A stretch of DNA of 64,000 nucleotides, taken from NCBI GenBank assembly GCA_003528115.1, contig DOGZ01000014.1, positions 66,466 through 130,465 on the forward strand, read 5' to 3'. Source of the DNA: Candidatus Omnitrophota bacterium (GTDB lineage Bacteria; Omnitrophota; Gorgyraeia; Zapsychrales; Zapsychraceae). This document shows positions 2,500 to 51,487 of this stretch, one piece after another. The first letter of the stretch is position 1; each line of letters starts with the position of its first letter. Below the pieces are notes generated by a model, which was not told the DNA's origin, did not search any database, and was given only the letters and a program-made list of their open reading frames with translations. The position numbers and the translations under genes were made by a program.

Positions 2500-5427
2500 A
2501 TGTTCTGGCGCATTGAAATAAAATTAAAAGAGAATATTTTTGACGCCCTCGGTGCGGGGATCCATAGATCGGTCCTGGATTTGGGTATTCGGACGATTTC
2601 CGGAGTCAAGGTTATTCAGGTGTATACCATTGACGGACGGATCAGTGAAGTACAGGTTCAAACGGCCTGCAGGGAATTGCTGGCGGATCACATCACGCAG
2701 GATTATGCCTACGCGGCCTACGACCACGCCGGGGATAAAAAAGAAAGATCTTCTTCCCCCTTTTCAGCGACGGAGAGTGCCTTCAGCATTGAAACCGCGT
2801 ATAATCCGGGAGTCATGGATCCGGTCGAACGATCGACGATCAAAGGATTAAGAGACCTCGGGATTGAACCGGTCGATGCGGTGCGGACGGCCAAGAAATA
2901 TGTTCTGCGCGGGACGGCCTCGTCTAAAGAGCTGCATATCATCACGAACAAAGTCCTCTTGAACAAGCTGATTCAGCACGTGGTCCAGGAGCCTTGTCCT
3001 CAAAAGACGTTCGCCGCTTCACCGGCGCAGCGATCCTTCAACCTGATTTATGTGGATTTAATCAAAGCCGGTGTCCGGCAATTAAAAAAAATAAGCAAGG
3101 ACGGACAGCTTTACCTCAATCTTGACGAGATGACGGTGATCCAGAAATATTTTAGAAAGCTTAAACGGAATCCGACCGATTGTGAATTGGAGACCATTGC
3201 TCAAACCTGGAGCGAGCATTGTTATCACAAGACGTTCCGCGGTAATATCCGTTATCAATACCAAGAGAACGGTCAAAAGAAAACGAAGGTGATCCGCAAT
3301 CTGTTGAAATCCACCATCTTCAAGGCCACTCAAGAAATCAATAAGTCCTGGTGTGTTTCTGTTTTCCATGATAACGCGGGCGTCATTAAATTCGATAAAG
3401 ACAGCCATGTCTGTTTTAAGGTTGAGACGCACAATCATCCTTCGGCCCTCGAGCCTTATGGCGGCGCGAATACAGGGTTGGGCGGTGTGATCCGTGATAT
3501 CCTGGGGACGGGGCTTGGGGCCAAACCGATTTGCAGTACGGATGTTTTTTGTTTTGCCCCGCCGGATTTGCCTTTTAAGGATTTGCCGGCCGGGACATTG
3601 CACCCCAAGAGGATTATGAAAGGGGTCGTCAGCGGCGTGCGGGATTACGGCAATAAAATGGGAATTCCGACGGTCAATGGGGCGATCGTTTTTGATAAGA
3701 AATTTGTGGGCAATCCGTTGGTGTATTGCGGGAATGTCGGGCTGATTCCCAAGGACAGAGTCCGAAAGAAGGTGCATCCAGGAGATTTAATCGTTGTTGC
3801 CGGAGGAAAAACGGGGCGGGATGGAATTCATGGAGCGACATTTTCTTCCGGAGAATTGACCGAGCAATCGGAGGTGATTTCTTCGGGGGCGGTACAGATA
3901 GGCGATCCTATTGAGGAAAAAAAAGTCTTGGATGTCCTCCTGCAGGCGCGGGATTTAAATCTTTATACCGCAATCACGGACTGCGGAGCCGGCGGGCTCT
4001 CCAGCGCTGTCGGGGAAATGGCCAAAGAGTTGGGCGCGCGTGTTGACCTTGAGAAGGTGCCTTTGAAGTATGAAGGCTTAAGTTATATGGAAATTTGGAT
4101 CTCGGAGTCTCAAGAGCGGATGGTGCTGTCGGTCAATCCCAAAAATATTCAGAAGTTTTTGAACGTGTTTGCCTCCGAGAATGTCGAGGCCACCGTTATT
4201 GGCGCTTTTACGGGGAGTCAACGCCTCGAACTTTTTTATCAAGGCCGTCAGGTCTGTGATCTGGCCATGGGCTTTTTGCATGACGGGATTCCGAATTTGA
4301 CCAAGGAGGCCTGTTGGACCCAACCCCGCCAACGCTCCCTCAGGATTCCGGTCACGCGGGATTTGGCAAAGAAATTACGGGAAGTTCTGTCCCATTATAA
4401 CGTGTGTTCCAAGGAATCCGTGGTACGTCAGTATGACCATGAAGTGCAGGGGGGGAGTGTCATTAAGCCTTTGAGCGGTGTCAACGCCGACGGGCCGTCT
4501 GACGCCAGTGTCGTGAGGCCGAGGCTGGATTCCCTCAAGGGGATAGCTGTTTCCAACGGCATTAATCCGCGGTTTGGGATGATCGATCCTTTCTGGATGG
4601 CCGCCTCGTGCATTGATGAGGCCGTGAGGCAGATCATTGCCGTCGGTGGAGACATGGAGAAAATTGCCATCCTCGATAATTTCTGCTGGGGGAATCCGGA
4701 TAAACCGGACCGCCTGGGCAGTCTGGTGCGCGCGGCGCAGGGGTGTTATAAAACCGCGGTCGGTTATCAGGTGCCGTTTATTTCCGGTAAAGACAGTTTG
4801 TATAATGAATATACCCAAGGCAAGAAATCCATCGCCATTCCCGGGACGTTGCTCATTTCCGCGATCGGCATTATCGAGGATGTGACCCAATGCGTGACCA
4901 TGGATTTTAAAAAAGCCGGAAATGTCATTTATGTCGTCGGTGAGACAAAGGATGAATTGGGCGGATCGATTTTTCTGGCGACATTGGATTTGATCGGATC
5001 AACGGTTCCCCGGGTGGATACGGAAAAGGGAACACGGATATTCAAGGCCTTATCCCGCGCTGCGCGCAAAGGGTTTGTCCGTTCCATCCACGACTGTTCC
5101 GAAGGAGGAATAGCGGTGGCCCTGGCGGAAATGGCTTTTAGCGGCGGCTTGGGCGTGCGTGCGCGGTTGGACCGGCTTCCTTTTTACAGCGAGGAAAAGA
5201 GAGACGACAAACTGCTCTTTTCAGAATCCAATTCCCGTTTTATTGTTGAAGTGGACCCGGATCACCAGAAGAGCTTTGAACGGATTCTCAAAGATGTTCC
5301 TTTTGGAATGATGGGGCATGTCGAGGCGACCGAGGAATTTGTTGTTTATGGTTTAAACGGCGAGATTTGTATGAAAAGTTCCCTGAGGGATCTCAAGGAA
5401 TCCTGGCAGAGTCCGCTGCGAGGGTAA
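2500..5427 (+). CDS. purL: FGAM synthase II with N-terminal PurS-like domain (purS-purL fusion)
   Basis: 975 aa; first ~80 aa resemble PurS, followed by a linker and tandem AIRS/PurM-like PurL domains. Confidence 0.85.
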   Translation: MFWRIEIKLKENIFDALGAGIHRSVLDLGIRTISGVKVIQVYTIDGRISEVQVQTACRELLADHITQDYAYAAYDHAGDKKERSSSPFSATESAFSIETAYNPGVMDPVERSTIKGLRDLGIEPVDAVRTAKKYVLRGTASSKELHIITNKVLLNKLIQHVVQEPCPQKTFAASPAQRSFNLIYVDLIKAGVRQLKKISKDGQLYLNLDEMTVIQKYFRKLKRNPTDCELETIAQTWSEHCYHKTFRGNIRYQYQENGQKKTKVIRNLLKSTIFKATQEINKSWCVSVFHDNAGVIKFDKDSHVCFKVETHNHPSALEPYGGANTGLGGVIRDILGTGLGAKPICSTDVFCFAPPDLPFKDLPAGTLHPKRIMKGVVSGVRDYGNKMGIPTVNGAIVFDKKFVGNPLVYCGNVGLIPKDRVRKKVHPGDLIVVAGGKTGRDGIHGATFSSGELTEQSEVISSGAVQIGDPIEEKKVLDVLLQARDLNLYTAITDCGAGGLSSAVGEMAKELGARVDLEKVPLKYEGLSYMEIWISESQERMVLSVNPKNIQKFLNVFASENVEATVIGAFTGSQRLELFYQGRQVCDLAMGFLHDGIPNLTKEACWTQPRQRSLRIPVTRDLAKKLREVLSHYNVCSKESVVRQYDHEVQGGSVIKPLSGVNADGPSDASVVRPRLDSLKGIAVSNGINPRFGMIDPFWMAASCIDEAVRQIIAVGGDMEKIAILDNFCWGNPDKPDRLGSLVRAAQGCYKTAVGYQVPFISGKDSLYNEYTQGKKSIAIPGTLLISAIGIIEDVTQCVTMDFKKAGNVIYVVGETKDELGGSIFLATLDLIGSTVPRVDTEKGTRIFKALSRAARKGFVRSIHDCSEGGIAVALAEMAFSGGLGVRARLDRLPFYSEEKRDDKLLFSESNSRFIVEVDPDHQKSFERILKDVPFGMMGHVEATEEFVVYGLNGEICMKSSLRDLKESWQSPLRG

Positions 5428-5510
5428 CTTTTCCGCGCCACAATATTTTTTTACTTTTATGAAAGTCAGTCTGATTTAAGAAATACGGACTTTCGCGAAT
5501 GGGAGAAAGA

Positions 5511-6179
5511 ATGAAACCAAATCAAAAAGGGAAATTGATGGAGGACTTGAAAATGGAAGACCCATGGCGGGTATTTCGGATTATGGGCGAATTTGTCGAG
5601 GGATTTCATGAACTCGCGGAGATCGGGCCGGCGGTCAGCATCTTTGGATCGGCCAGGACCAAACGAACGAACGGTTTGCATGCGCAAGCGGTGAAGACCG
5701 CGCAGCTTTTAGCCAAAGAAGGCTACGCGATCATTACGGGCGGCGGTCCTGGGATTATGGAGGCCGGCAATAAAGGCGCGCTTAATGCCAAAGGACGCTC
5801 TATTGGTTTAAACATCGAACTGCCGTTTGAACAAAAACCCAACCGCTATATCAATAAACTCATTAATTTCCACTACTTCTTCTGCAGGAAAGTGATGTTT
5901 GTTAAATATGCCAAGGCCTTTGTGATTTTTCCCGGCGGTTTTGGGACCCTCGATGAACTCTTCGAGAGTCTGACCCTGATCCAGACAGGGCGGATGGGAA
6001 AATTCCCCGTCGTCTTGTTTGGTTCGCAATATTGGAGCGGCTTGGTGGACTGGCTCAAGAATACCGTGGTCAAAGAAAAGAATATCGATCCTCAAGATGT
6101 TGAGATTTTTCAGATTGTCGATACTCCGGAGGATGTTCTTAAAGCGATTCACAATTTCTACAACAATAAAAAGAAATGA
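5511..6179 (+). CDS. LOG-family (TIGR00730) nucleotide N-glycosidase / PpnN-like protein
   Basis: Motifs GGGPGIMEAGNKGA and PGGFGTLDELFE; RBS GGGAGAAAGA precedes the ATG at 5511 (alternative ATG at 5499). Confidence 0.75.
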   Translation: MKPNQKGKLMEDLKMEDPWRVFRIMGEFVEGFHELAEIGPAVSIFGSARTKRTNGLHAQAVKTAQLLAKEGYAIITGGGPGIMEAGNKGALNAKGRSIGLNIELPFEQKPNRYINKLINFHYFFCRKVMFVKYAKAFVIFPGGFGTLDELFESLTLIQTGRMGKFPVVLFGSQYWSGLVDWLKNTVVKEKNIDPQDVEIFQIVDTPEDVLKAIHNFYNNKKK

Positions 6180-6233: not shown

Positions 6234-7097
6234 ATGAATGAGCAAGTCAAAGTCATTATTTTACGAACAGCCGGCACGAATTGTAACGAAGAAACGGCCT
6301 TCGCGTTTAGAAGTTGCGGGGCATGGGTGGATCAGGTCCACATTCATAAACTTTTTAACAGCTCCGTTCATTTAAAGGAGTATCACATCCTGGCCATTCC
6401 CGGCGGGTTTACGTATGGAGATGACATTGAGTCCGGCCGTATTTTGGCCAATGAATTGCGCCTGCGTCTGGGCGGGGACATCCGTCAATTTATTGAAGAC
6501 GGGAAACTTATGATCGGTATCTGCAACGGGTTTCAGGTATTGGTGAAAGCGGGACTTCTTCCGGGGCCTTTCAGTGAAGAAGAAAGACATCCCTCCACGT
6601 TTTCCCAACGCGCGACTTTGGTGAATAATGATTCGGGCCATTATGAAGACCGGTGGGTCTATTTGAAGGTCGACGGAAAGAGTGTCTGGACCCGAGGCAT
6701 AGAGCGGATGATCTACATCCCCGTCGCGCATGGGGAAGGAAAGTTTGTCCCTCGGGATCAAGACGTCCTTGCCCAGTTGCAAGGGAACGGTCAGGTCGCC
6801 TTTCGTTACTGCGGGCCAAACGGAGAAAAGCCGGAGTTTCCTCAAAATCCTAACGGATCCGTGGATGACATCGCCGGCATCACGGATAAGACGGGCCGTA
6901 TTTTGGGGCTGATGCCTCACCCTGAACGTCATTTTGTTTTTACCCAGCATCCCAGTTGGACACGGTTAGATAAAAAACAGCACTTGGGAGACGGGGCCAA
7001 GATTTTTGAAAATGGGGTGCAGTACGTGCGCAAGAACATTTTGAAAACGGCGCTAATCCCCCGTCTCCTCGCGGCGGGAACCGGCAAGGGGCAATAA
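6234..7097 (+). CDS. purQ: FGAM synthase I, glutamine amidotransferase subunit
   Basis: 287 aa; class-I GATase nucleophile elbow GICNGFQ; His/Glu present near the C-terminus. Confidence 0.85.
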   Translation: MNEQVKVIILRTAGTNCNEETAFAFRSCGAWVDQVHIHKLFNSSVHLKEYHILAIPGGFTYGDDIESGRILANELRLRLGGDIRQFIEDGKLMIGICNGFQVLVKAGLLPGPFSEEERHPSTFSQRATLVNNDSGHYEDRWVYLKVDGKSVWTRGIERMIYIPVAHGEGKFVPRDQDVLAQLQGNGQVAFRYCGPNGEKPEFPQNPNGSVDDIAGITDKTGRILGLMPHPERHFVFTQHPSWTRLDKKQHLGDGAKIFENGVQYVRKNILKTALIPRLLAAGTGKGQ

Positions 7098-9530: not shown

Positions 9531-10016
9531 ATGAATAATATCCAAATTGCTCTTATGATGGGAAGCCAGTCGGATCTGCCCGTGATGAAAGAGGCGGCCA
9601 AAATTCTGGAAGAATTTGATGTGTCGTATGAAATAAGGGTTCTTTCCGCGCACCGGACTCCAAAGGAGACGGCGGAGTATGCCGAACAGTTAAGGCTCCG
9701 GGGCGTGAAGGTGGTGATTTGCGGGGCCGGGGCTTCAGCCGCTTTGGCAGGGGTGGTGGCGGCGCATACGAGTTTGCCTGTGATTGGCGTGCCGATTGTC
9801 GCGACCCCTTTAAACGGAATGGACGCCTTGCTCTCGACTGTGCAAATGCCGCCGGGAGTTCCCGTGGGGGCGATGGCCATTGGGCCATCGGGGGCAAAAA
9901 ACGCGGCGCTCCTGGCTTTGCGGATTATCAGTCTTCAGGATAAGGACGTGGAGCGAAAATTGGCGGAATTTAAAGAAGAGCAAAGAAGAAAAATTCTTGA
10001 TACGGATCTGAATTGA
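9531..10016 (+). CDS. purE: N5-CAIR mutase
   Basis: 161 aa; MGSQSDLPVM and SAHRTP motifs. Confidence 0.9.
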   Translation: MNNIQIALMMGSQSDLPVMKEAAKILEEFDVSYEIRVLSAHRTPKETAEYAEQLRLRGVKVVICGAGASAALAGVVAAHTSLPVIGVPIVATPLNGMDALLSTVQMPPGVPVGAMAIGPSGAKNAALLALRIISLQDKDVERKLAEFKEEQRRKILDTDLN

Positions 10017-11077
10017 AAACAGAAATCGTTGAAGTCCATCCAGATTTTCCTGATTTAAAGAAAATAATTTATTGCGCCAAGATTATTCGTCAGGGCGGAT
10101 TGGTTATTTTCCCAACGGAAACTGTTTACGGAATTGCGGCGGATTTCTCGAATCCGCGGGCCATCCAAAGACTGCGGGAGGTCAAGGGCCGCTCCGAGGA
10201 CAAACCATTTTCTGTCTTGATTTCCCAGCGGGCGTTGATATCGAATTATACGACCAGTACGGATCCGGCCCTGTACAAATTAATTAACGCGTTTTGGCCT
10301 GGGCCATTGACCGTGGTGGTTCCGTCTAAAGAAGAGGGAAAGACGATCGGGATCCGCATGCCGGATCATAAAATCGCCTTAAGGTTAGTGCAGGAATCCC
10401 AATGCACCATTGCGGCGCCTTCGGCCAACCGGACGGGCGAAGAATCTCCGACGACATGCCAAGAGGCTTTAAAAAATTTGGACGGGTTGGTGGAAGTGGC
10501 GATTGACGGGGGCATCGCGAGAATCGGCAAAGGATCCTCGGTGGTTGACCTTGTTCAGGAAAAACCGACGGTTCTGAGGGAGGGCACGATCACGCAGGCG
10601 GACGTGGATCGTGTCACGCAAAAAAAAGGCGTTCTCTTTATCTGTACCGGCAATAGCTGCCGGTCGGTAATGGCGGAATATTTCTTGAAGAATTTGTTGA
10701 AGGATCGTGATGATGTGGAGGTGTTGTCGGCCGGCACAGGCGTTTTTTTGCGTTCAACAGCCAGCGCCGAGACGGTTGCGGTCTTAAAAGCGGAGGGGAT
10801 TGACGCCTCGCAGCATTTGTCCCAGCCGATCAGCACCGTCTTATTGAAGCAGGCGGATCTGATATTTGTGATGACCCGGGGCCATCGTCAGCAGGTTTTG
10901 GAACGTATCCCTGAAGTCGAGAAGCGGGTGTATCTCTTAAAGGAGTTTATTAAAACAGCGGGAGGGTATTCCTTTGACCTGGACATCCCTGACCCGATAG
11001 GCCGCCCCCGTGAGGCTTATGAGGAATGCCTGGCGATGATCAAAGAGGCGGTGCAGAGGATCGCGCAGCTTGTTTAG
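10013..11077 (+). CDS. L-threonylcarbamoyladenylate synthase (TsaC/Sua5/YrdC domain) fused to low-molecular-weight protein-tyrosine phosphatase
   Basis: TTG start overlaps the purE stop; N-terminal half is YrdC-like; C-terminal half carries the LMW-PTP P-loop CTGNSCRS (CX5R). Confidence 0.75.
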   Translation: MKTEIVEVHPDFPDLKKIIYCAKIIRQGGLVIFPTETVYGIAADFSNPRAIQRLREVKGRSEDKPFSVLISQRALISNYTTSTDPALYKLINAFWPGPLTVVVPSKEEGKTIGIRMPDHKIALRLVQESQCTIAAPSANRTGEESPTTCQEALKNLDGLVEVAIDGGIARIGKGSSVVDLVQEKPTVLREGTITQADVDRVTQKKGVLFICTGNSCRSVMAEYFLKNLLKDRDDVEVLSAGTGVFLRSTASAETVAVLKAEGIDASQHLSQPISTVLLKQADLIFVMTRGHRQQVLERIPEVEKRVYLLKEFIKTAGGYSFDLDIPDPIGRPREAYEECLAMIKEAVQRIAQLV

Positions 11078-11153: not shown

Positions 11154-11618
11154 ATGAAAATTTACATCGGAGCCGATCATCGCGGATATGATTATAAAGA
11201 GAAAATTATTAAAATACTCCAAGACCTGAAGTATAAAGTCACGGATTTCGGCGTTTATCATAAAGAAAAAGACTGCGATTATCCTGAAATCGCTTATCAA
11301 GTCGCGACCCACGTCGCTTCTACGAAAAATAGCCGGGGCATCCTCATTTGTATGTCGGGAATAGGCCAGGCCATGGCGGCCAACAAGGTGCGGGGGGCGT
11401 ATGCCGCCCTGTGTCATGACGCAGAGTCGGCTCTCTTGTCCCGTCAGCATAATAATGCCAATGTCCTTGTCCTGGGCGCGAAATTTGTCAAAGAAAAGGA
11501 CCTCAAAGACATTGTCCAGATATGGCTCACGACGGCGTTTGAAGGAGGAAGGCACCGTCGGAGGGTGAATAAGATTAAGAAAATCGAGAAAGGGATGGAT
11601 ATCCAATTCTGCCGATGA
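11154..11618 (+). CDS. rpiB: ribose-5-phosphate isomerase B
   Basis: 154 aa RpiB/LacAB family; N-terminus [15 protein letters not shown]. Confidence 0.85.
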
Positions 11619-11647
11619 AGACTATGGAACTGAACAAAGGAAAAACC

Positions 11648-12895
11648 ATGAAACATCTATCCGTGACCGATCCCGAGGTTTATCAGGCGATCGTTGAGGA
11701 AATAAAACGGCAACAGAATAATCTTGAATTAATCGCCTCAGAAAATATCGTCTCACAGGCCGTCCTCGAGGCCCAGGGGTGCGTGATGACCAATAAATAT
11801 GCCGAAGGCTACCCCGCGGCGCGCTGGTACGGGGGGTGTGAATACGCGGACGTCGTGGAGACCCTGGCGATTGAACGCGCCAAGAAGCTCTTCGGCGCAC
11901 AACATGTCAATGTTCAACCGCATTCCGGTTCGCAGGCGAATATGGCTGTTTATCTGGCGGCGCTCGAATACGGGGATACGGTGCTGGCCATGGATCTGGC
12001 CTGCGGCGGGCATTTAACACACGGATTTAAAATCAATTTCTCCGGTCGTTCCTACAATTTCGTCTCTTACAAGGTCGATCCAAAAACGGAGATGATTGAT
12101 TATGAGGAGGTTGAGGCCTTGGCCAAAGAGCATAAACCCAAAATGATTTTAGCCGGCGCTTCGGCGTATTCGAGGACGCTGGATTTTAAAAGATTCCGCG
12201 AAATTTGCGACAAGGTCGGCGCGGTTCTCTTTGTGGACATGGCGCACATCGCCGGACTGGTGGCGGCGGGCCTTCATCCTAACCCCGTGCCTTACGCGGA
12301 ATTTGTGACGACGACTACGCATAAAACACTCAGAGGCCCCCGGTCAGGCATGATCCTCTGCCAGGAGCGGTTCGCGAAGAAGATCGATTCCGCCATTTTT
12401 CCCGGCATCCAGGGCGGCCCGTTGATGCATGTCATCGCGGCCAAGGCCGTGGCGCTGAAAGAGGCCCTCAGTGAGGAGTTTAAACAGTATCAGCAGCAGG
12501 TCGTGAAAAACGCCAAGACCTTTGCTCAGGGGATGGCGGAGGCGGGGTACAGGATTGTCGCGGGCGGAACGGATAATCATCTTTTTATGGTGGATCTGCG
12601 TGGTAAAAATATCACGGGCAAAGAGGCGACGGAGGTGCTCGACAAAGTGCGCATCACGGTCAATAAGAATCTCATTCCGTTTGATCCGCAAAATTCGCGG
12701 GTGACCAGCGGTATCCGCGTCGGAACTCCGGCGGTCACCAGCCGCGGCATGAAAGAGCCGCAGATGAAAATAATCGCCGGATTGTGCGACCAGGCTATGA
12801 CGCATAAGGAAGATCCCGCTCTCCTGGCTAGGGTCAGAGCGGACGTTGAACAATTGACCAAGGCGTTTCCCATTTATCAGGAATTAGCGATGTAA
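11648..12895 (+). CDS. glyA: serine hydroxymethyltransferase
   Basis: Canonical SHMT; PLP-lysine region [12 protein letters not shown]; start taken at the ATG at 11648 (ORF is open from 11615). Confidence 0.9.
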
Positions 12896-13817: not shown

Positions 13818-13924
13818 TTTTATAATTCGAGGCCAATTGTAAAAGACCCGCGACAACCCGGGCAGAACGTCTTTTATCGTTGGTCTTTTGTATTTTCCCA
13901 TTCAATAGATTTATTGTCACGACA

Positions 13925-15394
13925 ATGCTTATGCCGCTTCTGACAGAGTATCCTCAACTGAAAACGATCCGAGAGATGGCCCGTAAAAAAGGGGTGGCTA
14001 TTTATATCGTCGGCGGATTCTTGCGCGATTACCTCTTGGGTCAGTGCAAGACGGATTTTGATTTCGCCGTTGAACGAGACGCCCTGGGCTTGGCCCGAGT
14101 GTTTGCCAGAAAAATTAAAGGGGCGTTTGTCCTTCTGGATGAAGAGCGCGGTTGCGCCCGCGTCGCGAGGAAAGAAGGAGGGCAGATATACACCTTTGAT
14201 TTCGCCGACTTCCGGGCCAAGACGTTTAAAGGGGATTTGTCTCATCGCGATTTTACGATTAATACCTTGTTTGTTGATCTGGTTTCTTTGACAGGGACTG
14301 AGGAGGTGGGGGATGTCCTGCGGGACCCCGGGAATGGTTTGGCGGATTTGAAAAATCAGAAAATCCGAATGACATTTGCCAAGACGTTCGAGGAAGATCC
14401 TTTGCGGATGATGCGGGCCTTCAGCCTCAGGGCGAACCTGGGATTCCAAATAGAGGCCCGGACCCTAACGCGCATAAAAAAGGATAAGGAACGTATACGG
14501 GATGTTTCCTATGAAAGGATTCGCGATGAATTATTCAAGATCCTGGAGTCCAGCCGGACCGGCGATGTTTTGAAAGAAATGGACCGGGCGGGATTATTAG
14601 AGAAGATTATGCCGCAGGTGAAGGTGATGTTTCATTGCAAACAGGGGGGGTATCATCATTTGGATGTCTGGCCGCATTCGCTGGAGACCGTTGTTCAGGT
14701 TGACCGGATGTTGAAACAACCCAGCCTGCTTGAGGAAAAATTAAGTCATTCGGATGTCGGCCAGGATTTGCATAAGTACCTGGCAGATCCTCTCGGCGGT
14801 AATCGCAGCCGCAAGGCCCTCATCAAACTGGCCGCCCTTGTGCATGATATCGGAAAACCCGATACCCGTAAGAAAGAAAAAGAAAGGGTTTCTTTTCACG
14901 GTCATGAACGGGTGGGGCGGGATATTGTCCGGTGCATTGCCAAACTGCTGAAACTTTCAACGCAAGAACGCCACGCTTTGGAGGACATGGTTCTCTGGCA
15001 TCTTCGGCCGGGGTATTTGTCGGATTTTCAACAACCTTCCCAGCGGGCGGTCTATCGTTATTTCCGCGACGCCAAAGAGGAGGCGGCGGGAATTCTTTTA
15101 TTGTCCCTGGCGGATCAGCAGGCCACGCGCGGGCCGTTGACGAGTGAAGACGATCAGCGGCAACATGAAAAAATTTGTTTGCAATTAATGCAACAATTCT
15201 TTATCAAGAGAAGAGAGAAACCTTTTCAACGTATCATCAGCGGCGATGATTTGATCAAGACTTTGAAATTAAAACCGTCTCCGCTGTTCGGAAAGATATT
15301 AGGTGAAGTCGAGGAGAAACAGACATTGGGAGAAATCAAGACAAAACGGGAAGCGCTGGCGCTGGCGAAGAAGATGGCGCAGCCGACGCGTTAA
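13925..15394 (+). CDS. cca: CCA-adding tRNA nucleotidyltransferase / poly(A) polymerase family with HD domain
   Basis: PolyA_pol head (GGFLRDYLLG...DFDFAV) plus HD motif (ALVHDIGKP); start uncertain (ORF open from 13880). Confidence 0.8.
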   Translation: MLMPLLTEYPQLKTIREMARKKGVAIYIVGGFLRDYLLGQCKTDFDFAVERDALGLARVFARKIKGAFVLLDEERGCARVARKEGGQIYTFDFADFRAKTFKGDLSHRDFTINTLFVDLVSLTGTEEVGDVLRDPGNGLADLKNQKIRMTFAKTFEEDPLRMMRAFSLRANLGFQIEARTLTRIKKDKERIRDVSYERIRDELFKILESSRTGDVLKEMDRAGLLEKIMPQVKVMFHCKQGGYHHLDVWPHSLETVVQVDRMLKQPSLLEEKLSHSDVGQDLHKYLADPLGGNRSRKALIKLAALVHDIGKPDTRKKEKERVSFHGHERVGRDIVRCIAKLLKLSTQERHALEDMVLWHLRPGYLSDFQQPSQRAVYRYFRDAKEEAAGILLLSLADQQATRGPLTSEDDQRQHEKICLQLMQQFFIKRREKPFQRIISGDDLIKTLKLKPSPLFGKILGEVEEKQTLGEIKTKREALALAKKMAQPTR

Positions 15395-15400
15395 AGGGTA

Positions 15401-16339
15401 ATGAAAATCATAAATTTAGAATTAAGAATTATTAAAGGCGACATGACGGAGCTGGAGGTCGACGCCATTGTCAATCCATCGAATCGGGAATTGAAAATGG
15501 ATGCGGGGCTGGCGGGATGGATCAAACAGAAGGCCGGCGCGGCTGTGGAGGATGAGGCGAAAAAGAAAGGCCCGCTTGAACCGGGTAGCGTTATTTGGAC
15601 CGGGGCGGGGCGGCTCAAGTCAAAATATATCATTCATGCCGTGACGGTGGGTGGAGATGGAAGGGCGGATGAGATGACTATCCGCCGGGCGTGTGCCGGG
15701 GCGTTTGGGTGCGCCGGTGAATTAAATGTAAAATCCGTGGCCTTGCCGGCGTTGGGCTGCGGCGCGGGCGGTTTTCCGGTGGTGGGATCCGCGAAGATCA
15801 TGGCCCAGGAGACGCTTAAGTTCGCGCGGTTCGGCAACAGCACCGTACGGGAAGTGGTCTATTGTCTTAAGGACGATGAGACGTATCAGACATTTGAAAA
15901 ACAAATTTACGGTTATATCAATCATGTCCAGAATGATTTGGGTCTTGGCCCGTATGTGACTGTGGATATTATTATTGAATGGAACGAAGGGATCGTTCTG
16001 ATTGAACGGTCGAATCCTCCCTTTGGACTGGCTTTACCCGGCGGGTTCCTGGATTATGGGGAGAGCCTGGAGCAGGGGGCTATCCGTGAGGCCAAGGAAG
16101 AGACGAATATGGATCTCCTGGATTTGTGTCAGTTTCACACCTACTCGAGTCCTGACCGGGATCCGCGTTTTCAAACAGTTTCCACGGTCTTTGTGGCGAA
16201 GGGGCGCGGGACCCCGCGATTCGGCGACGACGCGAAGGGATTGCGGGTTGTGGCGGTTGAAGATCTTTTGAAACTGGACTATGCCTTTGACCACAAACAG
16301 GTGATTCAGGATTATCTGGCCTTGGTCAAGCGATTTTGA
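15401..16339 (+). CDS. macro domain (Appr-1''-p processing) fused to NUDIX hydrolase
   Basis: N-terminal macro motifs (IVNPSN..., GCGAGGFP); C-terminal NUDIX box GGFLDYGESLEQGAIREAKEETN. Confidence 0.75.
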   Translation: MKIINLELRIIKGDMTELEVDAIVNPSNRELKMDAGLAGWIKQKAGAAVEDEAKKKGPLEPGSVIWTGAGRLKSKYIIHAVTVGGDGRADEMTIRRACAGAFGCAGELNVKSVALPALGCGAGGFPVVGSAKIMAQETLKFARFGNSTVREVVYCLKDDETYQTFEKQIYGYINHVQNDLGLGPYVTVDIIIEWNEGIVLIERSNPPFGLALPGGFLDYGESLEQGAIREAKEETNMDLLDLCQFHTYSSPDRDPRFQTVSTVFVAKGRGTPRFGDDAKGLRVVAVEDLLKLDYAFDHKQVIQDYLALVKRF

Positions 16340-22909: not shown

Positions 22910-23848
22910 GTGTGTATGCTTCTTCCTGGAATCATTTTTATCGTCGGGCCAACAGCGGTTGGGAAGTCAGATGTCGCTATTGTTCTGGCCCAACGCATTC
23001 AGGGGGAAATTATCTCCTGTGATTCGATGCAGGTTTATAGGGAAATTCATATCGCCAGCAATAAACCATCTGGGGATGAGTTAAAGAGTGTTCCGCATCA
23101 TTTAATCGATATTATTTCTGTCCGCGACGAGTTTGACGTGGCGCGATTTAATCAATTGGCCTTGACGCACATCAAGGCCATTCATAGCCGACAGCGCGTT
23201 CCTATTGTTGTCGGTGGGAGCGGGATGTATGTGCAGATCCTTTTAGACGGGATTTTTGAAGGTCGGGGCAAAGACCCTGAATTGCGCCAGGCCCTTGTCC
23301 GGCAGGCCCACGAACTGGGACCGGACGTATTATATGAGAAATTAAAACGGATGGATCCGCAGGCCGCGGCCAGGACGCATCCTAACGATTTGAAGCGGAT
23401 TATCCGGGCCCTGGAGATTGTGCTGACGGAAAATAAATCCGTCTCGGAATTGCATAAAGAGCGCAAAGGTTTGTGGGGGCAATATCCCATTGATATTTTT
23501 GGACTCAATTTAGATAGGAAGGAACTGTATAAAAAGATAGAGGCGCGGGTTGACCATATGTTTCAAGTCGGCGCGGTCGAAGAGGTCAGGGCTCTTCAGA
23601 ACATGTCGTTGAGCAAGACCGCCGAATGTATCATTGGTGTTAAAGAAATCCGGGGATATTTAAACGGCGCGTATGCAGAGGGGGAGGCCCGTGATCTGAT
23701 GAAACTCCATACCCGCCGTCTGGCTAAACGTCAGTTAACCTGGTTTAGAAAAGATAAACGCGTTTTTTGGTTGATGCTGGATTCCCCAGAAACGCCGCGG
23801 CGGGTTGCGGAGAGAATTTTAGAACAACTTCAAATCAGGGAAGGTTGA
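22910..23848 (+). CDS. miaA: tRNA dimethylallyltransferase
   Basis: P-loop GPTAVGKS; classic MiaA (IISCDSMQVYR...). Confidence 0.9.
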   Translation: MCMLLPGIIFIVGPTAVGKSDVAIVLAQRIQGEIISCDSMQVYREIHIASNKPSGDELKSVPHHLIDIISVRDEFDVARFNQLALTHIKAIHSRQRVPIVVGGSGMYVQILLDGIFEGRGKDPELRQALVRQAHELGPDVLYEKLKRMDPQAAARTHPNDLKRIIRALEIVLTENKSVSELHKERKGLWGQYPIDIFGLNLDRKELYKKIEARVDHMFQVGAVEEVRALQNMSLSKTAECIIGVKEIRGYLNGAYAEGEARDLMKLHTRRLAKRQLTWFRKDKRVFWLMLDSPETPRRVAERILEQLQIREG

Positions 23849-23856
23849 ACAAGGGT

Positions 23857-25107
23857 ATGGAAAAGAACCATAAAGAAAAAGTCTTGCTGGTCATTGTTGA
23901 GTTAAAGAAACGGAAAAGCGGCTGGTCGACAAGCGAAATCCGCGACGAAATGGAAGCGTTAGTGGTCGCCTGCGGCGGAGAAGTGGTTGGGGATGTTATT
24001 TGCCCGCTGGCCACTCCGACGGCAAGATATTATATCGGTGAGGGAAAAGTCAAGGAAATAGCCCAGGAATGTGTTCTCAAAGAAGCCGATACGGTCATAT
24101 TTAATCATGATCTCAAGGGCACGCAGCAAAGGAATTTGGAAGAAAGTTTTAAGATAAAGACGATTGATCGCACGCAGTTGATTTTAGATATTTTTGCAAG
24201 ACGGGCCACAAGCCGGGAAGGCAAGATGCAAGTGGAACTCGCGCAGTTTGAGTATTTGTTGCCGAGGCTTGTTGGAAAAGGCGTGGAACTATCCAGATTA
24301 GGCGGGGGGATCGGGACGCTGGGCCCCGGCGAGACCAAGCTTGAGATCGACCGGCGGCGTATATCCGAAAAGATTACCCGGTTGCGCCAAGATCTCAAGG
24401 AAGTGGCTTCTGAGCGCGCGCTCAAACGGAAGAAACGCCAGGAATTCGGGACCCCGTCGCTGTCTCTGGTGGGATACACGAATGCCGGAAAGTCTACGCT
24501 GTTAAACACTCTGACGCAGTCTGATCAAGAAACGAAAGACGGTTTGTTTACAACGCTGGATTCTCTTTCCCGGCAGTTGGTTTTACCAAACCATCAAAAG
24601 GCGATTTTAACAGATACCGTTGGGTTTATGCATGAGCTGCCGCACCGTCTTGTTGAGGCGTTCAAGGCCACATTGGAAGAGGTGACGCAAGCGGATATTC
24701 TGGTGCATGTCCTGGATGTGAGTCATCCTCAGTTCCGTAATTTGTATGAAGCCGTCGGCGTCGTTTTAAAGGAACTTGAGGCTCAGGATAAGCCGACGAT
24801 TGTTGTCCTAAACAAAATCGATAAGCTGGACGATAGACATTGGGTACAGCATCTTCGTGAAAATTTTGAGCACGCAGTCGGCGTTTCGGCGAAAACGGGG
24901 GAAAATGTGTCGGAATTATTGGCCATGATCAGCGCGCTCTTATCTTCACGTCTTGTTGAGATTAACATTGACGTTCCGATCAGCCGGATGGATCTCGTGA
25001 ATCTGGCCCATGAAGAAGGTCAGGTCATTTCCGTAAAATATTATACGGACACGATTAATATTCGGGCAACGGTGCCGGTCCACCTGGCCGGGAAATTCTA
25101 TAAATAG
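23857..25107 (+). CDS. hflX: GTPase HflX
   Basis: HflX N-domain plus G-domain (GYTNAGKST, DTVGF, NKID); start at ATG 23857 (ORF open from 23767, overlapping the miaA end). Confidence 0.85.
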   Translation: MEKNHKEKVLLVIVELKKRKSGWSTSEIRDEMEALVVACGGEVVGDVICPLATPTARYYIGEGKVKEIAQECVLKEADTVIFNHDLKGTQQRNLEESFKIKTIDRTQLILDIFARRATSREGKMQVELAQFEYLLPRLVGKGVELSRLGGGIGTLGPGETKLEIDRRRISEKITRLRQDLKEVASERALKRKKRQEFGTPSLSLVGYTNAGKSTLLNTLTQSDQETKDGLFTTLDSLSRQLVLPNHQKAILTDTVGFMHELPHRLVEAFKATLEEVTQADILVHVLDVSHPQFRNLYEAVGVVLKELEAQDKPTIVVLNKIDKLDDRHWVQHLRENFEHAVGVSAKTGENVSELLAMISALLSSRLVEINIDVPISRMDLVNLAHEEGQVISVKYYTDTINIRATVPVHLAGKFYK

Positions 25108-27003: not shown

Positions 27004-27750
27004 GTGAATATGACATCACGATTAGTGGATGTTAGAGCAAGGAAAGATAAAATCCTTGGAATAACGATTGATCAGTATATTAAAACAGTTTCACCTGTTA
27101 GTTCTATGTTTTTGGCCACTGAATACAATCTGGAATTAAGCCCGGCCAGCATAAGAAATATCCTTGCTGAATTAGAAGAAGACGGTTATTTGACGCATCC
27201 CCATACTTCAGCCGGCCGAATCCCTACTCAAATGGGATACCGGTATTACGTGGATCATTTGATGGATGAAATCCAATTGCTTGAAGAGGAAAAACAGCGT
27301 ATTAAAGCGGAAGTTGATCAAAACAGCATGGAACTAGAAGAGTTGCTGGATAAGACTTCCCGTGTTTTGTCGGATACGACCCATTATACCAGCATCATTT
27401 CTGTTGATGGATGGGGCAATAAAGTATTTTGCTGCGGAACCAGCTTTATTGTGGACTATCCAGAATACCAGGACATCAAAAAGATTGGGAATATCTTGAC
27501 CGCGTTAGATGAAAAAGAACAACTGCTGGGAATTATTAATCAAGATTTGGCGAAGAAAATTAATATTTATATCGGCCATGAAATGGCCTGTTCTGAGATT
27601 AATAGCTGTTCTTTGGTTGTTTCAAGATACCGGTCCAAGGAAGGAACGACTGGCCGGTTAGCTGTGTTGGGCCCCACCCGAATGAATTATGAACACGTAG
27701 TTTCCGCCATAGATTATCTCTCCCATCATTTAATGGAAGAAATTTTATAA
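27004..27750 (+). CDS. hrcA: heat-inducible transcription repressor HrcA
   Basis: 248 aa; position ahead of grpE-dnaK-dnaJ and behind CIRCE; N-terminal wHTH. Confidence 0.8.
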   Translation: MNMTSRLVDVRARKDKILGITIDQYIKTVSPVSSMFLATEYNLELSPASIRNILAELEEDGYLTHPHTSAGRIPTQMGYRYYVDHLMDEIQLLEEEKQRIKAEVDQNSMELEELLDKTSRVLSDTTHYTSIISVDGWGNKVFCCGTSFIVDYPEYQDIKKIGNILTALDEKEQLLGIINQDLAKKINIYIGHEMACSEINSCSLVVSRYRSKEGTTGRLAVLGPTRMNYEHVVSAIDYLSHHLMEEIL

Positions 27751-27756
27751 TTTGAG

Positions 27757-28365
27757 GTGTCCAAGGAAATGCAGGAAAATCCCCAGACAGATAGTTCAAA
27801 GGAAAACAACTCGCCATCAGGAGATCATGCGGCTGAGAAAGGTTTTCTTGATGAAAAACAAGAGAAGGTGGGACAAGAGAGCGCGCCAGATCCCATGATC
27901 AAGATTAAAGAGTCGGACTATAAAAAACTTAACGAAGAGGCGGTTCAGTATAAAGACCGGTATGTCCGGTTGTACGCTGAGTTTGAGAACGCACGTAAGC
28001 GCATGGAGCGCGAAAAAATAGAGTTTATGAAATACGCGAATGAGGAGCTTATTATCGAATTTTTAGCGATATTGGATAACCTGGAACGATCCATTGAAGC
28101 CGCTAAAACAAAGCATCAGGATTATGAGGCATTTCTTAAAGGGGTGGAAATGGTGATGACGCACATTCATGAAATGCTGAAGAAGAACGGCGTTCGTCCG
28201 ATTGAAGCCAAGGGAAAGATGTTTGATCCCCATTGTCATGAAGTCTTGATGCAGGAAGAGACAGATCTTTTTGAGGATGGAATTGTTATGGAAGAATTTC
28301 AAAAGGGATATTATCTTGGCGATAAAGTTGTTCGTACCGTTAAAGCCAAGGTGGCCAAGAAATGA
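27757..28365 (+). CDS. grpE: nucleotide exchange factor GrpE
   Basis: 202 aa; GrpE coiled-coil and C-terminal motif (RYVRLYAEFENARKR). Confidence 0.9.
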   Translation: MSKEMQENPQTDSSKENNSPSGDHAAEKGFLDEKQEKVGQESAPDPMIKIKESDYKKLNEEAVQYKDRYVRLYAEFENARKRMEREKIEFMKYANEELIIEFLAILDNLERSIEAAKTKHQDYEAFLKGVEMVMTHIHEMLKKNGVRPIEAKGKMFDPHCHEVLMQEETDLFEDGIVMEEFQKGYYLGDKVVRTVKAKVAKK

Positions 28366-28409
28366 AAGACAGAATCAGCATATCGTTGTGAGGTTAAAGG
28401 AGGACCGAC

Positions 28410-30347
28410 ATGGCAAGAGCAATTGGTATTGATTTAGGAACATCGAATTCGGCGGCCGCCGTTATGGAAGGTGGACGTCCAACGATTATTCCTTCGGCTG
28501 AAGGGGCGGGTGTGGCTTCGGGAAAGGCGTTTCCGTCTTTTGTCGCTTTTACGAAGGATGGGCAGCGATTGGTGGGAGAGCCGGCTAGACGCCAGGCTCC
28601 GATCAATTCGGAAGGGACCATTTACGCGGCTAAACGTAAAATGGGGACTAATGAGACGTTTAAGGTCTTTGGAAAAGAATTCACGCCCCAACAGGTCAGC
28701 GCTTTTATTCTGCAAAAAATAAAAACGGACGCGGAGAAATTTCTCGGTGAAAAAGTGGAGGAGGCTGTGATCACCGTGCCCGCGTACTTTAATGACAATC
28801 AGCGTCAGGCCACTAAAGACGCCGGAGAAATCGCCGGGCTAAAAGTCTTAAGAATTATTAATGAGCCCACGGCCGCTTGTCTGGCCTACGGATTGGATAA
28901 GGCCGGCAAAGAACAGAAAATTATGGTCTTCGATTTCGGCGGCGGCACGCTGGATGTTACTATCCTGGAAATGGGATGGGATGAGGAGCATAAGGCGGCA
29001 ACGTTTGAAGTATTATCGACAAGCGGGGATAATCATCTCGGCGGCACCGATATGGATAATGTCTTGATTGATTATATCGTCGGTGAGTTCAAGAAAGACT
29101 CAGGAATAGATTTGAAAAATGACAAAATGGCCTTTCAGCGGTTAAGAGAGGCAGCGGAAAAAGCTAAAGTCGAACTTTCGAGCACGGTTTCCACAGATAT
29201 TAATCTGCCGTTCATCACCGCCGATGCCAGCGGACCTAAACACCTGACGTTGACGATTGACCGGGCCAAATTGGAAGATTTGATTTCTTCCATTGTTGAT
29301 CGTTGCCGTGGGCCGATTATGCAGGCCATGAAAGATGCCTCCGACAAACTCGGGGAGAAGGTTCAGGTCGAACGCGTTATTCTCGTTGGGGGGCCGACAC
29401 GCATGCCCATTGTTCAGAAATTCGTTGAGAAAGAAATTGGTCAGAAAATTGAACGCGGAGTCGATCCTATGGAGTGCGTGGCGTTAGGGGCCGCTATTCA
29501 GGCAGGGATTATTCGCGGCGAAGCCAAGGAAGTTTTGCTTTTGGACGTCACGCCATTAACCCTCGGTATTGAGACCTTAGGAGGGGTTTTTACGAAATTG
29601 ATCGATCGCAATACCACGATTCCCATCAAAAAAAGCCAGATTTTCTCAACCGCCGATGATAATCAAACAGCGGTGACTATTCGAGTTCTTCAGGGAGAAC
29701 GGCAGATGGCCAATGATAACACGGAATTAGGACGTTTTGATTTGGTCGGTATCCCGCCGGCACCAAGAGGTGTTCCGCAAGTTGAGGTTACTTTTGATAT
29801 TGATACCGACGGTATCGTTCATGTCTCCGCCAAAGATAAAGGAACGGGGAAAGAGCAATCAATCCGGATTACAGCTAAAACTAAACTCTCGGACGCGGAA
29901 ATAGAAAAAATGGTTAAAGAGGCCGAAAAATATGCCGAAGAGGATAAAAAACGAAAAGAAGAGGTGGAATTACTTAATCAGGCCAATAGCCTTCTTTATT
30001 CGACGGAAAAAGCCGTGAAAGATTACGGTGATAAAATTTCAGCCGACGATAAATCCCATATAGAGAAAGAACTTGAGACCCTGAAAGAAGCGATCAAGGG
30101 CAAGGATAAGGATAAGATCAAGCATCACATGGATTCCTTGCAGAAGGCGAGTCATAAATTGGCGGAGGAAGTCTATAAATCAACGGCCTCACAACAGGCC
30201 GGTGGTTCACAGGCGGAGGGCTCTGCTGATCATGGGACGCATTCTGGGGGGGCAGATTCTCCGCATGGGCACAAAGGAGAATCCAAATCAGACAAAAACG
30301 ATGATGTCATTGACGCGGATTTTAAGGCCGAGGATGACAAGAAATAA
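28410..30347 (+). CDS. dnaK: chaperone DnaK (Hsp70)
   Basis: 645 aa; Hsp70 signatures [27 protein letters not shown]. Confidence 0.95.
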
Positions 30348-30408
30348 GGTGTTAACAAAATAAAGAAAGTCAAGAGTGTAAATTATAGTCTTTGAATATA
30401 AATTAGAA

Positions 30409-30438
30409 GGGACGCGAAATCTCGCGTCCCTCCTTATT
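30409..30438 (+). terminator. putative intrinsic terminator/attenuator between dnaK and dnaJ
   Basis: 9-bp GC-rich stem GGGACGCGA/TCGCGTCCC with a 4-nt loop, followed by TCCTTATT. Confidence 0.45.
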
Positions 30439-30466
30439 GAATCCGCGGTTATTGAGAAGGTTTTAG

Positions 30467-31621
30467 ATGAAAAAAGATTATTACGAAATTTTAGGTGTTC
30501 CCCGGCAGTCCGCTTTGCCGGAGATAAAAAAAGCTTATAGGTCGCTGGCTCTGAAGTTTCATCCGGATCGCGTACCGGAGGGAGAAAAGAAAGAAGCTGA
30601 AGAAAAGTTTAAAGAAATATCAGAAGCTTACGGTGTCTTGTCTGATCCCCAGAAACGTTCGTTGTATGATCAATATGGCCATGCCGGGATCGATCGAAAC
30701 TATACGGCCGATGATATATTTAAGGGGGCGGATTTTAGCAGCATCTTCGGTGAAGCCGGGTTGGGGGATGTCTTTAGTCAGTTTTTTGGTGACGCGGCCT
30801 TTGACATATTCGGCGGGTCGAGCTCGGGCCAGCGGGGTTCTCGAAAACGTCATCAACGGGGACGTGATATTCAGTATGAGGTGGATGTCTCTTTGGAAGA
30901 GGCCTTCACCGGGATCAAAAAGAAAATTCAAATTCCCCGCAATGAGTATTGCACGCATTGCCAGGGTTCTGGAGCTAAAGCGGGCAGTCACATGAAAACG
31001 TGCAGCACTTGCGGTGGACGGGGCCAGGTGATGATGGCCAGTGGATTTTTCAGGATGGCTCAAACCTGTTCCGCGTGTGGGGGGCAGGGGCAGATTATTA
31101 CAGAATATTGTCCTGAGTGTCATGGAAAGGGATACCTCAGGGTGACAAGGAATATAGACGTTGGCATTCCGCCGGGGGTGGACAATAGTTCCAGACTCAG
31201 AGTCCGGGGCGAGGGCGAGATCGGGAGCGGCGGGGCTGGTGATCTTTTTCTCTATATTCACGTTCTGGATCATGAAACTTTTAAAAGAGACGGGAATGAT
31301 ATTTATATGCCTTTAGAAGTGAGTTTTATCAAAGCGGCTTTAGGCGCGGAGATGTCCGTTCCCACGCTGAATGGCCAGGTATCGATGAAGATTCCGGCTG
31401 GAACGCAAAGCGGGAAGGTTTTTCGTCTAAAAGGGAAGGGAATGCCGGATGTGCACATGGGGGCGCAGGGGGATCAATATGTTACGATTATGCTTCAAGT
31501 TCCCACAAAATTAAGCCCTGAGCAGAGGGAATTATTGGAGAAATTTGCAGAGATCAGTGGAGAGGACGTTACCCCGATGGCAAAATCTCTTAAGGAAAAG
31601 ATAAAAAAAGTTTTTAAATAA
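30467..31621 (+). CDS. dnaJ: chaperone DnaJ
   Basis: J-domain with HPD (KFHPDR), G/F region, four CxxCxGxG zinc-finger repeats. Confidence 0.95.
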
Positions 31622-36988: not shown

Positions 36989-37007
36989 AAATTACAAGGG
37001 ATAAGAA

Positions 37008-48465: not shown

Positions 48466-48711
48466 ATGCGTATCCCCCCTAATAAACAATTATTTTGGTT
48501 TCTTAAAGATACTGTCTCTTTAGATCTGTCTAAAACTTCAGACCTGGAGCTGTATGTACAACAGGTACTATCCAGAGGAAACCAAGAGGACGTCAAAGCC
48601 CTCTTAACTGCGGTTGATTTTGAACAATTTAAGCAAGTATTCTCAAGAATTAAACGATTTTTTCCCTGGGAGGTTCGGGCTTTTTGGGAGGATTTCATTG
48701 AAAATTATTAA
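48466..48711 (+). CDS. small hypothetical protein, candidate antitoxin of the downstream AbiEii-like gene
   Basis: 81-aa ORF whose stop overlaps the likely TTG start (~48695) of the nucleotidyltransferase gene; no recognised domain. Confidence 0.3.
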   Translation: MRIPPNKQLFWFLKDTVSLDLSKTSDLELYVQQVLSRGNQEDVKALLTAVDFEQFKQVFSRIKRFFPWEVRAFWEDFIENY

Positions 48712-49378: not shown

Positions 49379-49381
49379 GTC

Positions 49382-51007: not shown

Positions 51008-51015
51008 AGTAAAGA

Positions 51016-51469: not shown

Positions 51470-51487
51470 ACAGACAGGAGAGTGTTC

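Follow-up and report, generated by a model that had tools for sequence, protein, structure and literature searches.

In Bacillus subtilis, TsaD, a protein of N6-threonylcarbamoyladenosine (t6A) synthesis, is phosphorylated on Arg282. Loss of the phosphatase gene ywlE leads to its faster degradation by ClpCP, and the substitution R282K suppresses this effect (PMC7546277). In Staphylococcus aureus, the phospho-arginine (pArg) phosphatase gene ptpB lies in an operon with the upstream open reading frame (ORF) NWMN_2020, and glyA adjoins it (PMC8001253). Two reviews of t6A mention only HypF and TobZ as fusions. The present study concerns a stretch of 64,000 nucleotides (nt) from a Candidatus Omnitrophota bacterium (GenBank assembly GCA_003528115.1, contig DOGZ01000014.1, forward-strand positions 66,466 to 130,465), which is called the window throughout and is numbered from its first letter. 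The window contains a 354-amino-acid (aa) ORF (10013..11077, + strand; TTG start, TAG stop at 11075-11077) in which a TsaC/YrdC-like catalytic domain is followed by a protein-tyrosine phosphatase domain of the low-molecular-weight type (LMW-PTP). We interpreted the product as one polypeptide with two working enzymes, produced by the fusion of neighbouring tsaC/sua5 and ywlE-like genes, and put the probability of this reading at about 0.7.

An earlier inspection of the letters of this DNA (the sequence-only reading) had proposed these two domains, and the profile searches agreed with it. Pfam Sua5_yciO_yrdC (PF01300) matched residues 23-191 (10079..10585, + strand) at E 1.2e-53 and 181.7 bits, covering the whole profile (1-178/178). 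The L-threonylcarbamoyladenylate synthase equivalog TIGR00057 matched residues 10-201 with 181.7 bits, above its cutoff of 123.2. The C-terminal half matched Pfam LMWPc (PF01451) at residues 207-349 (10631..11059, + strand) over profile positions 1-142/144, with E 4.9e-32 and 111.6 bits (gathering cutoff 23.2). Sua5_C (PF03481) gave no match in the fusion protein at E<=0.01 in the Pfam scan. With a full LMWPc match in its place, the C-terminal half is not the regular Sua5 C-terminal domain; alignment to that domain was the outcome that the sequence-only reading had named as counting against it.

To estimate conservation, the query was aligned with 141 representatives, taken from a library whose members had been clustered at 50% identity. 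The two-domain representatives numbered 115 and were 30-60% identical to the query; together with the query they form the denominator of 116 used below. A second subset comprised 25 proteins of more than 450 aa ("long forms").

Both catalytic centres were present and conserved. In the TsaC half, alignment placed the KxR part of the catalytic tetrad at K58-G59-R60 (10184..10192, + strand), and the SxN part at S137-A138-N139, directly preceded by a signature proline, Pro136 (10418..10429 for the four residues, + strand). This tetrad is used as a mark of genuine TsaC/Sua5 enzymes (PMC10321239). Within the two-domain set it was retained at K in 107/116, R in 104/116, S in 115/116 and N in 114/116. 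In the phosphatase half, the P-loop at residues 211-218, C211-T-G-N-S215-C216-R217-S218 (CTGNSCRS; 10643..10666, + strand), provides the nucleophile Cys211, the specificity residue Ser215, a second cysteine (Cys216) and Arg217; the CTGNSCRS motif had been noticed in the sequence-only reading. The alignment placed the general-acid loop at D327-P328-I329-G330 (10991..11002, + strand). C211, C216, R217, D327 and P328 were each invariant (116/116). The retention of both sets of residues across the fusion family indicated purifying selection on both catalytic centres.

Two further explanations were rejected. Retention of the catalytic Cys, Arg and Asp in 116/116 spoke against a C-terminal domain that is dead or purely structural. 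A frameshift or a chimeric assembly was ruled out by the finding of the uninterrupted ORF in hundreds of independent assemblies. One protein in the public collection (P0001) was 100% identical to the window fusion protein.

The fold was modelled by AlphaFold2, run on the alignment of 116 sequences. The model had a mean predicted local distance difference test score (pLDDT) of 97.1 and a predicted template modelling (TM) score (pTM) of 0.92. Its lowest-confidence part was the loop before the DP motif (pLDDT ~79). The high pTM for a two-domain chain suggested that the interdomain arrangement is confidently fixed, and the fusion protein is predicted to be a rigid two-domain body. The interdomain linker is TITQADVDRVTQKKG, 15 residues at positions 192-206 (10586..10630, + strand). 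Its residues 195-202 were predicted by DSSP to form a short helix, and the block-mean pLDDT was 97-98 over residues 181-210. The linker was also near-constant in length, with a spacing from G191 to C211 of 18-19 residues in 78 of the 116 homologues.

Foldseek comparisons with the PDB gave matches for the TsaC half to Sua5, YciO and YrdC (E from 1e-11 to 5e-22), and for the C-terminal half to solved LMW-PTPs with target-normalised TM scores of 0.83-0.93. The Sua5 structures covered only the TsaC half, with query-normalised TM scores of 0.53-0.55 and a root-mean-square deviation (rmsd) of 15-18 A. Since only this half superposes on Sua5, the phosphatase domain is not in the position of the SUA5 domain.

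The affinity of the N-terminal half was traced by sequence. Its best solved relative was Pyrococcus abyssi Sua5 (6f87, E 1.8e-36); YciO (4.8e-17) and Escherichia coli TsaC (1.9e-9) were more distant. The score was 129 bits against Sua5 N-domains versus 41 bits against E. coli TsaC. According to Pichard-Kostuch et al. (PMC10321239), the residue before SxN separates the variants: Sua5 has Pro there, whereas single-domain TsaC has Thr or Ser, apart from a few TsaC exceptions having Pro in Aquificae, Brachyspira, Lactococcus and Erysipelothrix. In the fusion protein this position is Pro136, of the Sua5 type rather than the TsaC-type Thr or Ser. The two-domain representatives were divided at this position (Pro 66, Thr 34, Ser 12), and the Planctomycetota fusions had Thr or Ser wherever the search pattern matched.

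Other Sua5 features were degenerate in the fusion protein. The interface motifs KPSPT and GVE read EESPT and GKG, and the active-site residues Pro59, Asn62 and His67 of Sua5 correspond to Ser61, Lys64 and Leu69, the lysine being found in many TsaCs as well. The long forms retained the full Sua5 motif set. The N-terminal half of the window protein is a TsaC-like catalytic domain still bearing the Sua5-type proline. Presence of this proline without the other Sua5 features fits an origin from a Sua5 that lost its SUA5 domain.

The C-terminal half was closest to the arginine phosphatases. Its best solved relative was YwlE of G. stearothermophilus (4pic, E 3.1e-21, 79 bits), followed by an LMW-PTP of T. 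tengcongensis (4egs, 3e-19) and B. subtilis YwlE (1zgg and 4kk3, 1.2e-17). Below YwlE in the ranking came Wzb (56-61 bits), MPtpA and ArsC, and also YfkJ (28 bits, 2.6e-5), a tyrosine phosphatase of B. subtilis. The chain record of 4egs reads 'Ribose 5-phosphate isomerase RpiB', and the entry title reads LMW-PTP. The chain name was probably carried over from the adjoining rpiB gene, again reflecting the linkage between phosphatase and rpiB.

Position 5 of the P-loop is a known specificity switch in this fold. Thr confers the preference for pArg in YwlE, PtpB and DARP, Ile directs the enzyme to phosphotyrosine (pTyr), and Thr-to-Ile swaps shift the activity (PMC7772506, PMC8001253). The two-domain fusions had Ser in 55 and Thr in 52 of the 116, and the long forms had Thr in 23/25. 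Among the best 120 Planctomycetota homologues, the P-loop was CTGNTCRS, the exact YwlE P-loop, without exception (120/120). The residue following DP was Ile or Val, non-aromatic, in 90/116 (Ile in the window protein). These results suggested that the C-terminal domain belongs to the YwlE-like subgroup and probably prefers pArg, or at least non-aromatic phospho-residues of proteins. The LMW-PTP fold of the sequence-only reading is thus retained, and its tyrosine-phosphatase label gives way to a nearest relationship with the YwlE arginine-phosphatase subgroup.

The proposed mechanism is as follows. The N-terminal domain would act as a TsaC-type L-threonylcarbamoyl-AMP (TC-AMP) synthase, converting threonine, CO2 or bicarbonate, and ATP to TC-AMP and pyrophosphate (PPi). 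Formation of TC-AMP is the first step of t6A37 synthesis on tRNA. The C-terminal domain would be a Cys-dependent phosphatase of the LMW-PTP fold, predicted to act on proteins. As to origin, tsaC or sua5, a ywlE-like phosphatase gene and rpiB would have been neighbours, as in many bacteria, and the first two would have been joined in frame, giving no fewer than two architectures (SUA5 present or absent). The fusion would fix co-expression of the two activities at 1:1 and, if the predicted rigid interface is correct, also their physical association. We infer that the two halves are both truly active, that the phosphatase half has a phospho-protein as its substrate, with pArg likelier than pTyr, and that the co-localisation is what gives the selective advantage.

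Several observations weighed against this interpretation. Position 5 of the P-loop in the window protein is Ser215; the hydroxyl is kept, but the residue tested by experiment was Thr. The complete P-loop, CTGNSCRS, is identical to that of the arsenate reductase ArsC pI258 (1ljl). The Sua5-type Pro136 leaves some doubt as to how the N-terminal domain works in the absence of SUA5. No McsB, ClpC or tyrosine kinase gene was found in the 64-kb window. Absence of the kinase would not be decisive, as pArg is present in mycobacteria that have no recognisable McsB homologue. A literature search for McsB in Planctomycetota or Omnitrophota gave nothing relevant, and the paper on the McsB structure is silent about its spread among phyla. 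Finally, a 2026 preprint reported that pArg versus pTyr specificity is non-absolute in the LMW-PTP family, and for this reason the pArg preference is treated here as inferred.

A more specific possibility is that the phosphatase tethered to TsaC serves t6A synthesis itself, by dephosphorylating TsaD, TsaB, TsaE or TsaC and thereby protecting or tuning the pathway. The status of B. subtilis TsaD as a YwlE client (PMC7546277) was the only experimental bridge found. Two architectures, one containing Sua5_C and the other lacking it, combine a YwlE-like phosphatase with a TC-AMP synthase, which is also in favour of this role, as are the confident, fixed interdomain interface predicted by AlphaFold2 and the near-constant length of the linker. 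On the other hand, YwlE has many clients in Bacillus, so that the adjacency may merely reflect a shared growth-related operon (prfA, prmC, rpiB, glyA). Moreover, no tsaD, tsaB or tsaE was found near the fusion within the 64-kb window, and the evidence for phosphorylation of TsaD is confined to Firmicutes. We regard such a dedicated role as plausible but rather unlikely. Equally tentative is the suggestion that the repeated fusion in Omnitrophota, Planctomycetota and Clostridia records an ancient, direct connection of t6A synthesis with the dephosphorylation of proteins (on arginine), for example by keeping TsaD unphosphorylated and stable.

The second domain might instead be a classical tyrosine phosphatase, a Wzb-like pTyr enzyme controlling a bacterial tyrosine kinase (BY-kinase) and polysaccharide export, and fused to TsaC by an accident of gene order. 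The name of the Pfam family points that way. The top NCBIfam matches of the phosphatase half were Wzb (61.7 against a cutoff of 243) and a generic 'phosphotyrosine-protein phosphatase' (59.1 against 247), both far under cutoff. Foldseek TM scores were slightly higher to Wzb than to YwlE, and polysaccharide and lipopolysaccharide genes were abundant in the 3' half of the window. The sequence ranking was in the opposite direction, with YwlE ahead of Wzb and YfkJ. Position 5 of the P-loop is Ser or Thr rather than Ile or Leu, and Ile or Val follows DP, where the pTyr enzymes usually have an aromatic residue. No BY-kinase gene adjoins the fusion gene. The free-standing Wzb-type genes of Proteobacteria also lacked tsaC and rpiB as neighbours. 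This was seen at 26 free-standing LMW-PTP loci (L013-L038) of Proteobacteria and other phyla, none of which had a tsaC or rpiB neighbour where blastp confirmed the phosphatase. These loci belong to a different, Wzb-like subgroup and are uninformative for the fusion itself. Taken on both sides, a tyrosine phosphatase appeared rather improbable.

The phosphatase domain could also be a substitute for SUA5, replacing this domain and its linker and taking part in the small-molecule chemistry of TC-AMP, such as binding or removal of PPi. Its location within the polypeptide is that of SUA5, the total length is Sua5-like, Pro136 is retained in the N domain, and the interface is predicted to be rigid. 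P. abyssi Sua5 (6f87) was solved with PPi, contacted by Asn62, and a P-loop is an anion-binding site. HypF, in which an acylphosphatase domain is fused to a YrdC domain, offers a precedent. Against these points, proteins of three domains hold both Sua5_C and LMWPc, and an unfused version of the pair exists (described below). The partial superposition on Sua5 and the degenerate interface motifs (EESPT, GKG) are also unfavourable, as is the lysine at the equivalent of Asn62, which is that of TsaC. Cleavage of PPi is not known from LMW-PTPs. The substitution is very doubtful.

An arsenate reductase of the LMW-PTP fold is the least probable of all and can practically be set aside: the P-loop, called LMW-PTP/ArsC-type in the sequence-only reading, is indeed that of ArsC pI258, and one database homologue (P0040) bears the name 'Arsenate reductase thioredoxin-coupled, LMWP family', but the ArsC redox-relay positions Cys82 and Cys89 are Thr and Val in the fusion protein (alignment to the 1ljl sequence), no Cys beyond the P-loop pair is conserved across the fusion family, the ArsC profile scores are far under cutoff (TIGR02691, 54.7 versus 174.3; a second ArsC model, 57.5 versus 215), and there are no ars genes nearby in a housekeeping context that is kept across phyla.

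The distribution supported a lineage-wide architecture. In a search seeded with the window protein, the best 120 matches all had both domains (120/120), and most of those named were from Omnitrophota. A search seeded with a Planctomycetaceae member gave the same result for its best 120 matches (120/120), which included Pirellulales, Planctomycetia and Thermoguttaceae. Three of these fusions (P0367, P0389 and P0385) are on contigs of 3-8.8 Mb. In Omnitrophota and Planctomycetota the gene usually has this fused form, which mirrors a conserved gene order of tsaC, a ywlE-like gene and rpiB. The sequence-only reading had called for this check, having considered the arrangement non-standard. This was correct in that Sua5_C is missing, and incorrect if it is taken to mean rare. 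The database names of the fusion were inconsistent ('threonylcarbamoyl-AMP synthase', 'protein-tyrosine phosphatase', 'arsenate reductase').

A three-domain form, Sua5+Sua5_C+LMWPc, was found in 7/7 of the longer representatives tested with Pfam. It occurs in Clostridia-type genomes, and one example is in an Oscillospiraceae metagenome-assembled genome (MAG), downstream of prfA. The three-domain locus L041 has the order rpmE-DUF1385-prfA-prmC-[fusion]-rpiB-DUF436-deoxycytidine monophosphate deaminase. We take these surroundings to be the equivalent of the Bacillus ywlC...ywlG neighbourhood.

The unfused version was found at the Omnitrophota locus L010 (43-45% identity), which has tsaC and a phosphatase gene as two adjoining genes at the same syntenic place. 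The tsaC gene ends with TAG, followed by a very GC-rich spacer of ~85 nt, after which the phosphatase gene begins with an ATG of its own (MGVKRILFVCTGNSCRS). The spacer (6579-6670 of this locus) has runs of G and then complementary runs of C (GGGGCAGGGGGCGGGAGACAGGGGGCGAGGG ... CCCACGCCCCGCGTCTCTTGCCCCGCGCCCC). It may represent a structured element, or else what is left of an insertion.

Two other homologues had unusual compositions. P0230 (436 aa) has two YrdC-domain stretches and Sua5_C, with no phosphatase domain, and in P0409 (606 aa) the TsaC-LMWPc fusion is accompanied by an additional domain, PF13808. Two MAGs (L001 and L006), labelled 'uncultured Planctomycetales bacterium' and 'Lysobacterales bacterium', showed the complete gene order of the Omnitrophota type, with 60-69% identity to the window; their labels are probably binning or labelling errors.

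The fusion gene lies in an array of housekeeping genes transcribed in one direction: purB, purC, purSL, a LOG-like gene, purQ, purM, purD, purE, the fusion, rpiB, glyA, nrdR, a BFN-domain gene and a CCA-type nucleotidyltransferase gene. Upstream is purE (5-aminoimidazole ribonucleotide (AIR) carboxylase; 9531..10016, + strand; Pfam AIRC, E 9.5e-61). Downstream are rpiB (ribose-5-phosphate isomerase B; 11154..11618, + strand; PF02502, E 6.2e-55) and glyA (serine hydroxymethyltransferase; 11615..12895, + strand; PF00464, E 3.3e-171), the ATG of which overlaps the rpiB stop. The order purE-[fusion]-rpiB-glyA-nrdR was kept in eight Omnitrophota-type loci of 55-69% identity, and the fusion was followed by rpiB in three Planctomycetota loci. 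Overall, rpiB was downstream in most loci checked (L001-L012 and L041), and the synteny with glyA was kept in L001-L008 and L010.

The start codon of the fusion, TTG at 10013-10015, and the stop codon of purE, TGA at 10014-10016, overlap to give TTGA (10013-10016), as the sequence-only reading had described. The first residue of the ORF (M/V/L-KTE...) was at the same place in eight orthologous Omnitrophota-type loci, with ATG as the start codon in 3, GTG in 2 and TTG in 3. Use of the same first residue by these loci indicated that the TTG call is sound. The 4-nt overlap was present only in the window and in its closest locus, L001; at the other seven Omnitrophota-type fusion loci, the purE stop was ~20-200 nt upstream of the fusion. 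Translational coupling to purE, which had been claimed on the basis of the overlap, is plausible in this genome. It is not a conserved feature, as the overlap is confined to these two loci.

The gap of 76 nt before rpiB was also tested. Its hairpin was no more stable than those of shuffled sequences (z = +1.15), terminator-like sites were at the number expected from shuffles, and there were no Rfam or tRNA matches in the 64-kb window. A regulatory RNA or terminator ahead of rpiB was rejected on these results.

Some other features of the window are recorded here. All convincingly annotated genes in the 64 kb are on the + strand, an unusually long co-directional stretch. The minus-strand ORFs of at least 110 aa overlap longer plus-strand genes, and the two tested with Pfam (50883-51470 and 36885-37469) gave no match. 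Within the purine operon, purL (2500-5427, 975 aa) has an N-terminal PurS domain (PurS, the formylglycinamide ribonucleotide amidotransferase (FGAR-AT) linker and AIRS/AIRS_C), and a LOG or 'lysine decarboxylase-like' SLOG gene (5499-6179) is located between purL and purQ. Directly 3' of the gene for a CCA-type tRNA nucleotidyltransferase with an HD domain (13880-15394) is a gene for a 312-aa protein with Macro and NUDIX domains, both ADP-ribose-related (15401-16339).

At a distance of 12 kb downstream of the fusion is miaA, another gene for modification of tRNA A37, with hflX after it (region 22910-25107). The listed hflX ORF (TTG at 23767) overlaps miaA by 82 nt, and for this reason its true start is probably later. 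A heat-shock operon, hrcA-grpE-dnaK-dnaJ, is at 27004-31621; its hrcA ORF is short (248 aa), and the match to the HrcA profile is limited to C-terminal residues 140-233. In Firmicutes, HrcA has been reported as a target of McsB. Two adjoining genes for GGDEF diguanylate cyclases, the first of which also has a GAF domain, are at 35693-38027. Among the sugar-nucleotide genes is a gene for an AbiEii-type nucleotidyltransferase toxin of the type IV toxin-antitoxin family (48614-49378); the ~670 nt after it (49379-50047) contained no ORF of at least 110 aa, and no partner antitoxin was identified.

Full-text literature searches found no publication that describes or tests a fusion of TsaC/Sua5 with LMW-PTP. 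The domains, their chemistry and the linkage of the genes are already known; the architecture is abundant in databases, and no paper describing it was found. Its length of 354 aa is that of a Sua5, so sorting of TsaC and Sua5 by length would misfile such fusions. As a 'Rosetta stone', the fusion may be taken to hint that YwlE-like phosphatases and TC-AMP synthase act, or are needed, together. The link between YwlE and t6A has so far come from one genetic study in B. subtilis, on the stability of TsaD. If the pArg preference is true, two phyla that are not Gram-positive carry a pArg phosphatase within an essential housekeeping enzyme, which prompts one to ask what kinase would place the mark there. 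If the ancient link is true, phospho-arginine signalling reaches well beyond Firmicutes.

Compared with known systems, the fusion resembles most directly the adjoining gene pairs of Firmicutes. The tsaC (ywlC)/ywlE pair of B. subtilis and NWMN_2020-ptpB of S. aureus belong to the same two families, with rpiB and glyA close by. The B. subtilis order is ywlC-ywlD-ywlE-ywlF(rpiB)-ywlG-glyA. The fusion differs from these pairs in being one polypeptide with a 15-residue linker, in having a TC-AMP synthase without SUA5, and in having Ser instead of Thr at position 5. With YwlE, PtpB and Drosophila DARP the C-terminal half shares the LMW-PTP fold, the C(X)4CR(S/T) P-loop with the second Cys, the DP acid and a small hydroxyl at position 5. 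The window protein differs from them in this Ser, in Ile in place of Phe or Tyr after DP, and in the fused TsaC. ArsC pI258 (1ljl) has the same P-loop and fold family, whereas the fusion is without Cys82/Cys89, is ~30% identical and scores under the cutoffs.

On the TC-AMP synthase side, Sua5 (P. abyssi 6f87, S. tokodaii 3aje and T. maritima TsaC2 9dsq) shares the YrdC-like domain, KxR/SxN, the signature proline and a similar length. In the fusion the second domain is LMW-PTP, KPSPT/GVE are degenerate, Asn62 and His67 are replaced by Lys and Leu, and the flexible linker of ~20 residues is missing; the second domains do not superpose. Single-domain TsaC (E. coli YrdC, 1hru) is likewise without SUA5 and has Lys at the equivalent of Asn62, and the TsaC exceptions of Aquificae, Brachyspira, Lactococcus and Erysipelothrix have Pro before SxN, like the fusion. 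Relative to single-domain TsaC, the fusion adds an enzymatic domain and is nearer to Sua5 N-domains in sequence. HypF, TobZ and TsaN (TsaD-TsaC-SUA5-TcdA) indicate that YrdC-like domains are often fused to enzymes of the same pathway. Their partners (Kae1-like, acylphosphatase, TcdA) are chemically linked to them, whereas the LMW-PTP joined to TsaC here is a partner with no obvious role in TC-AMP chemistry.

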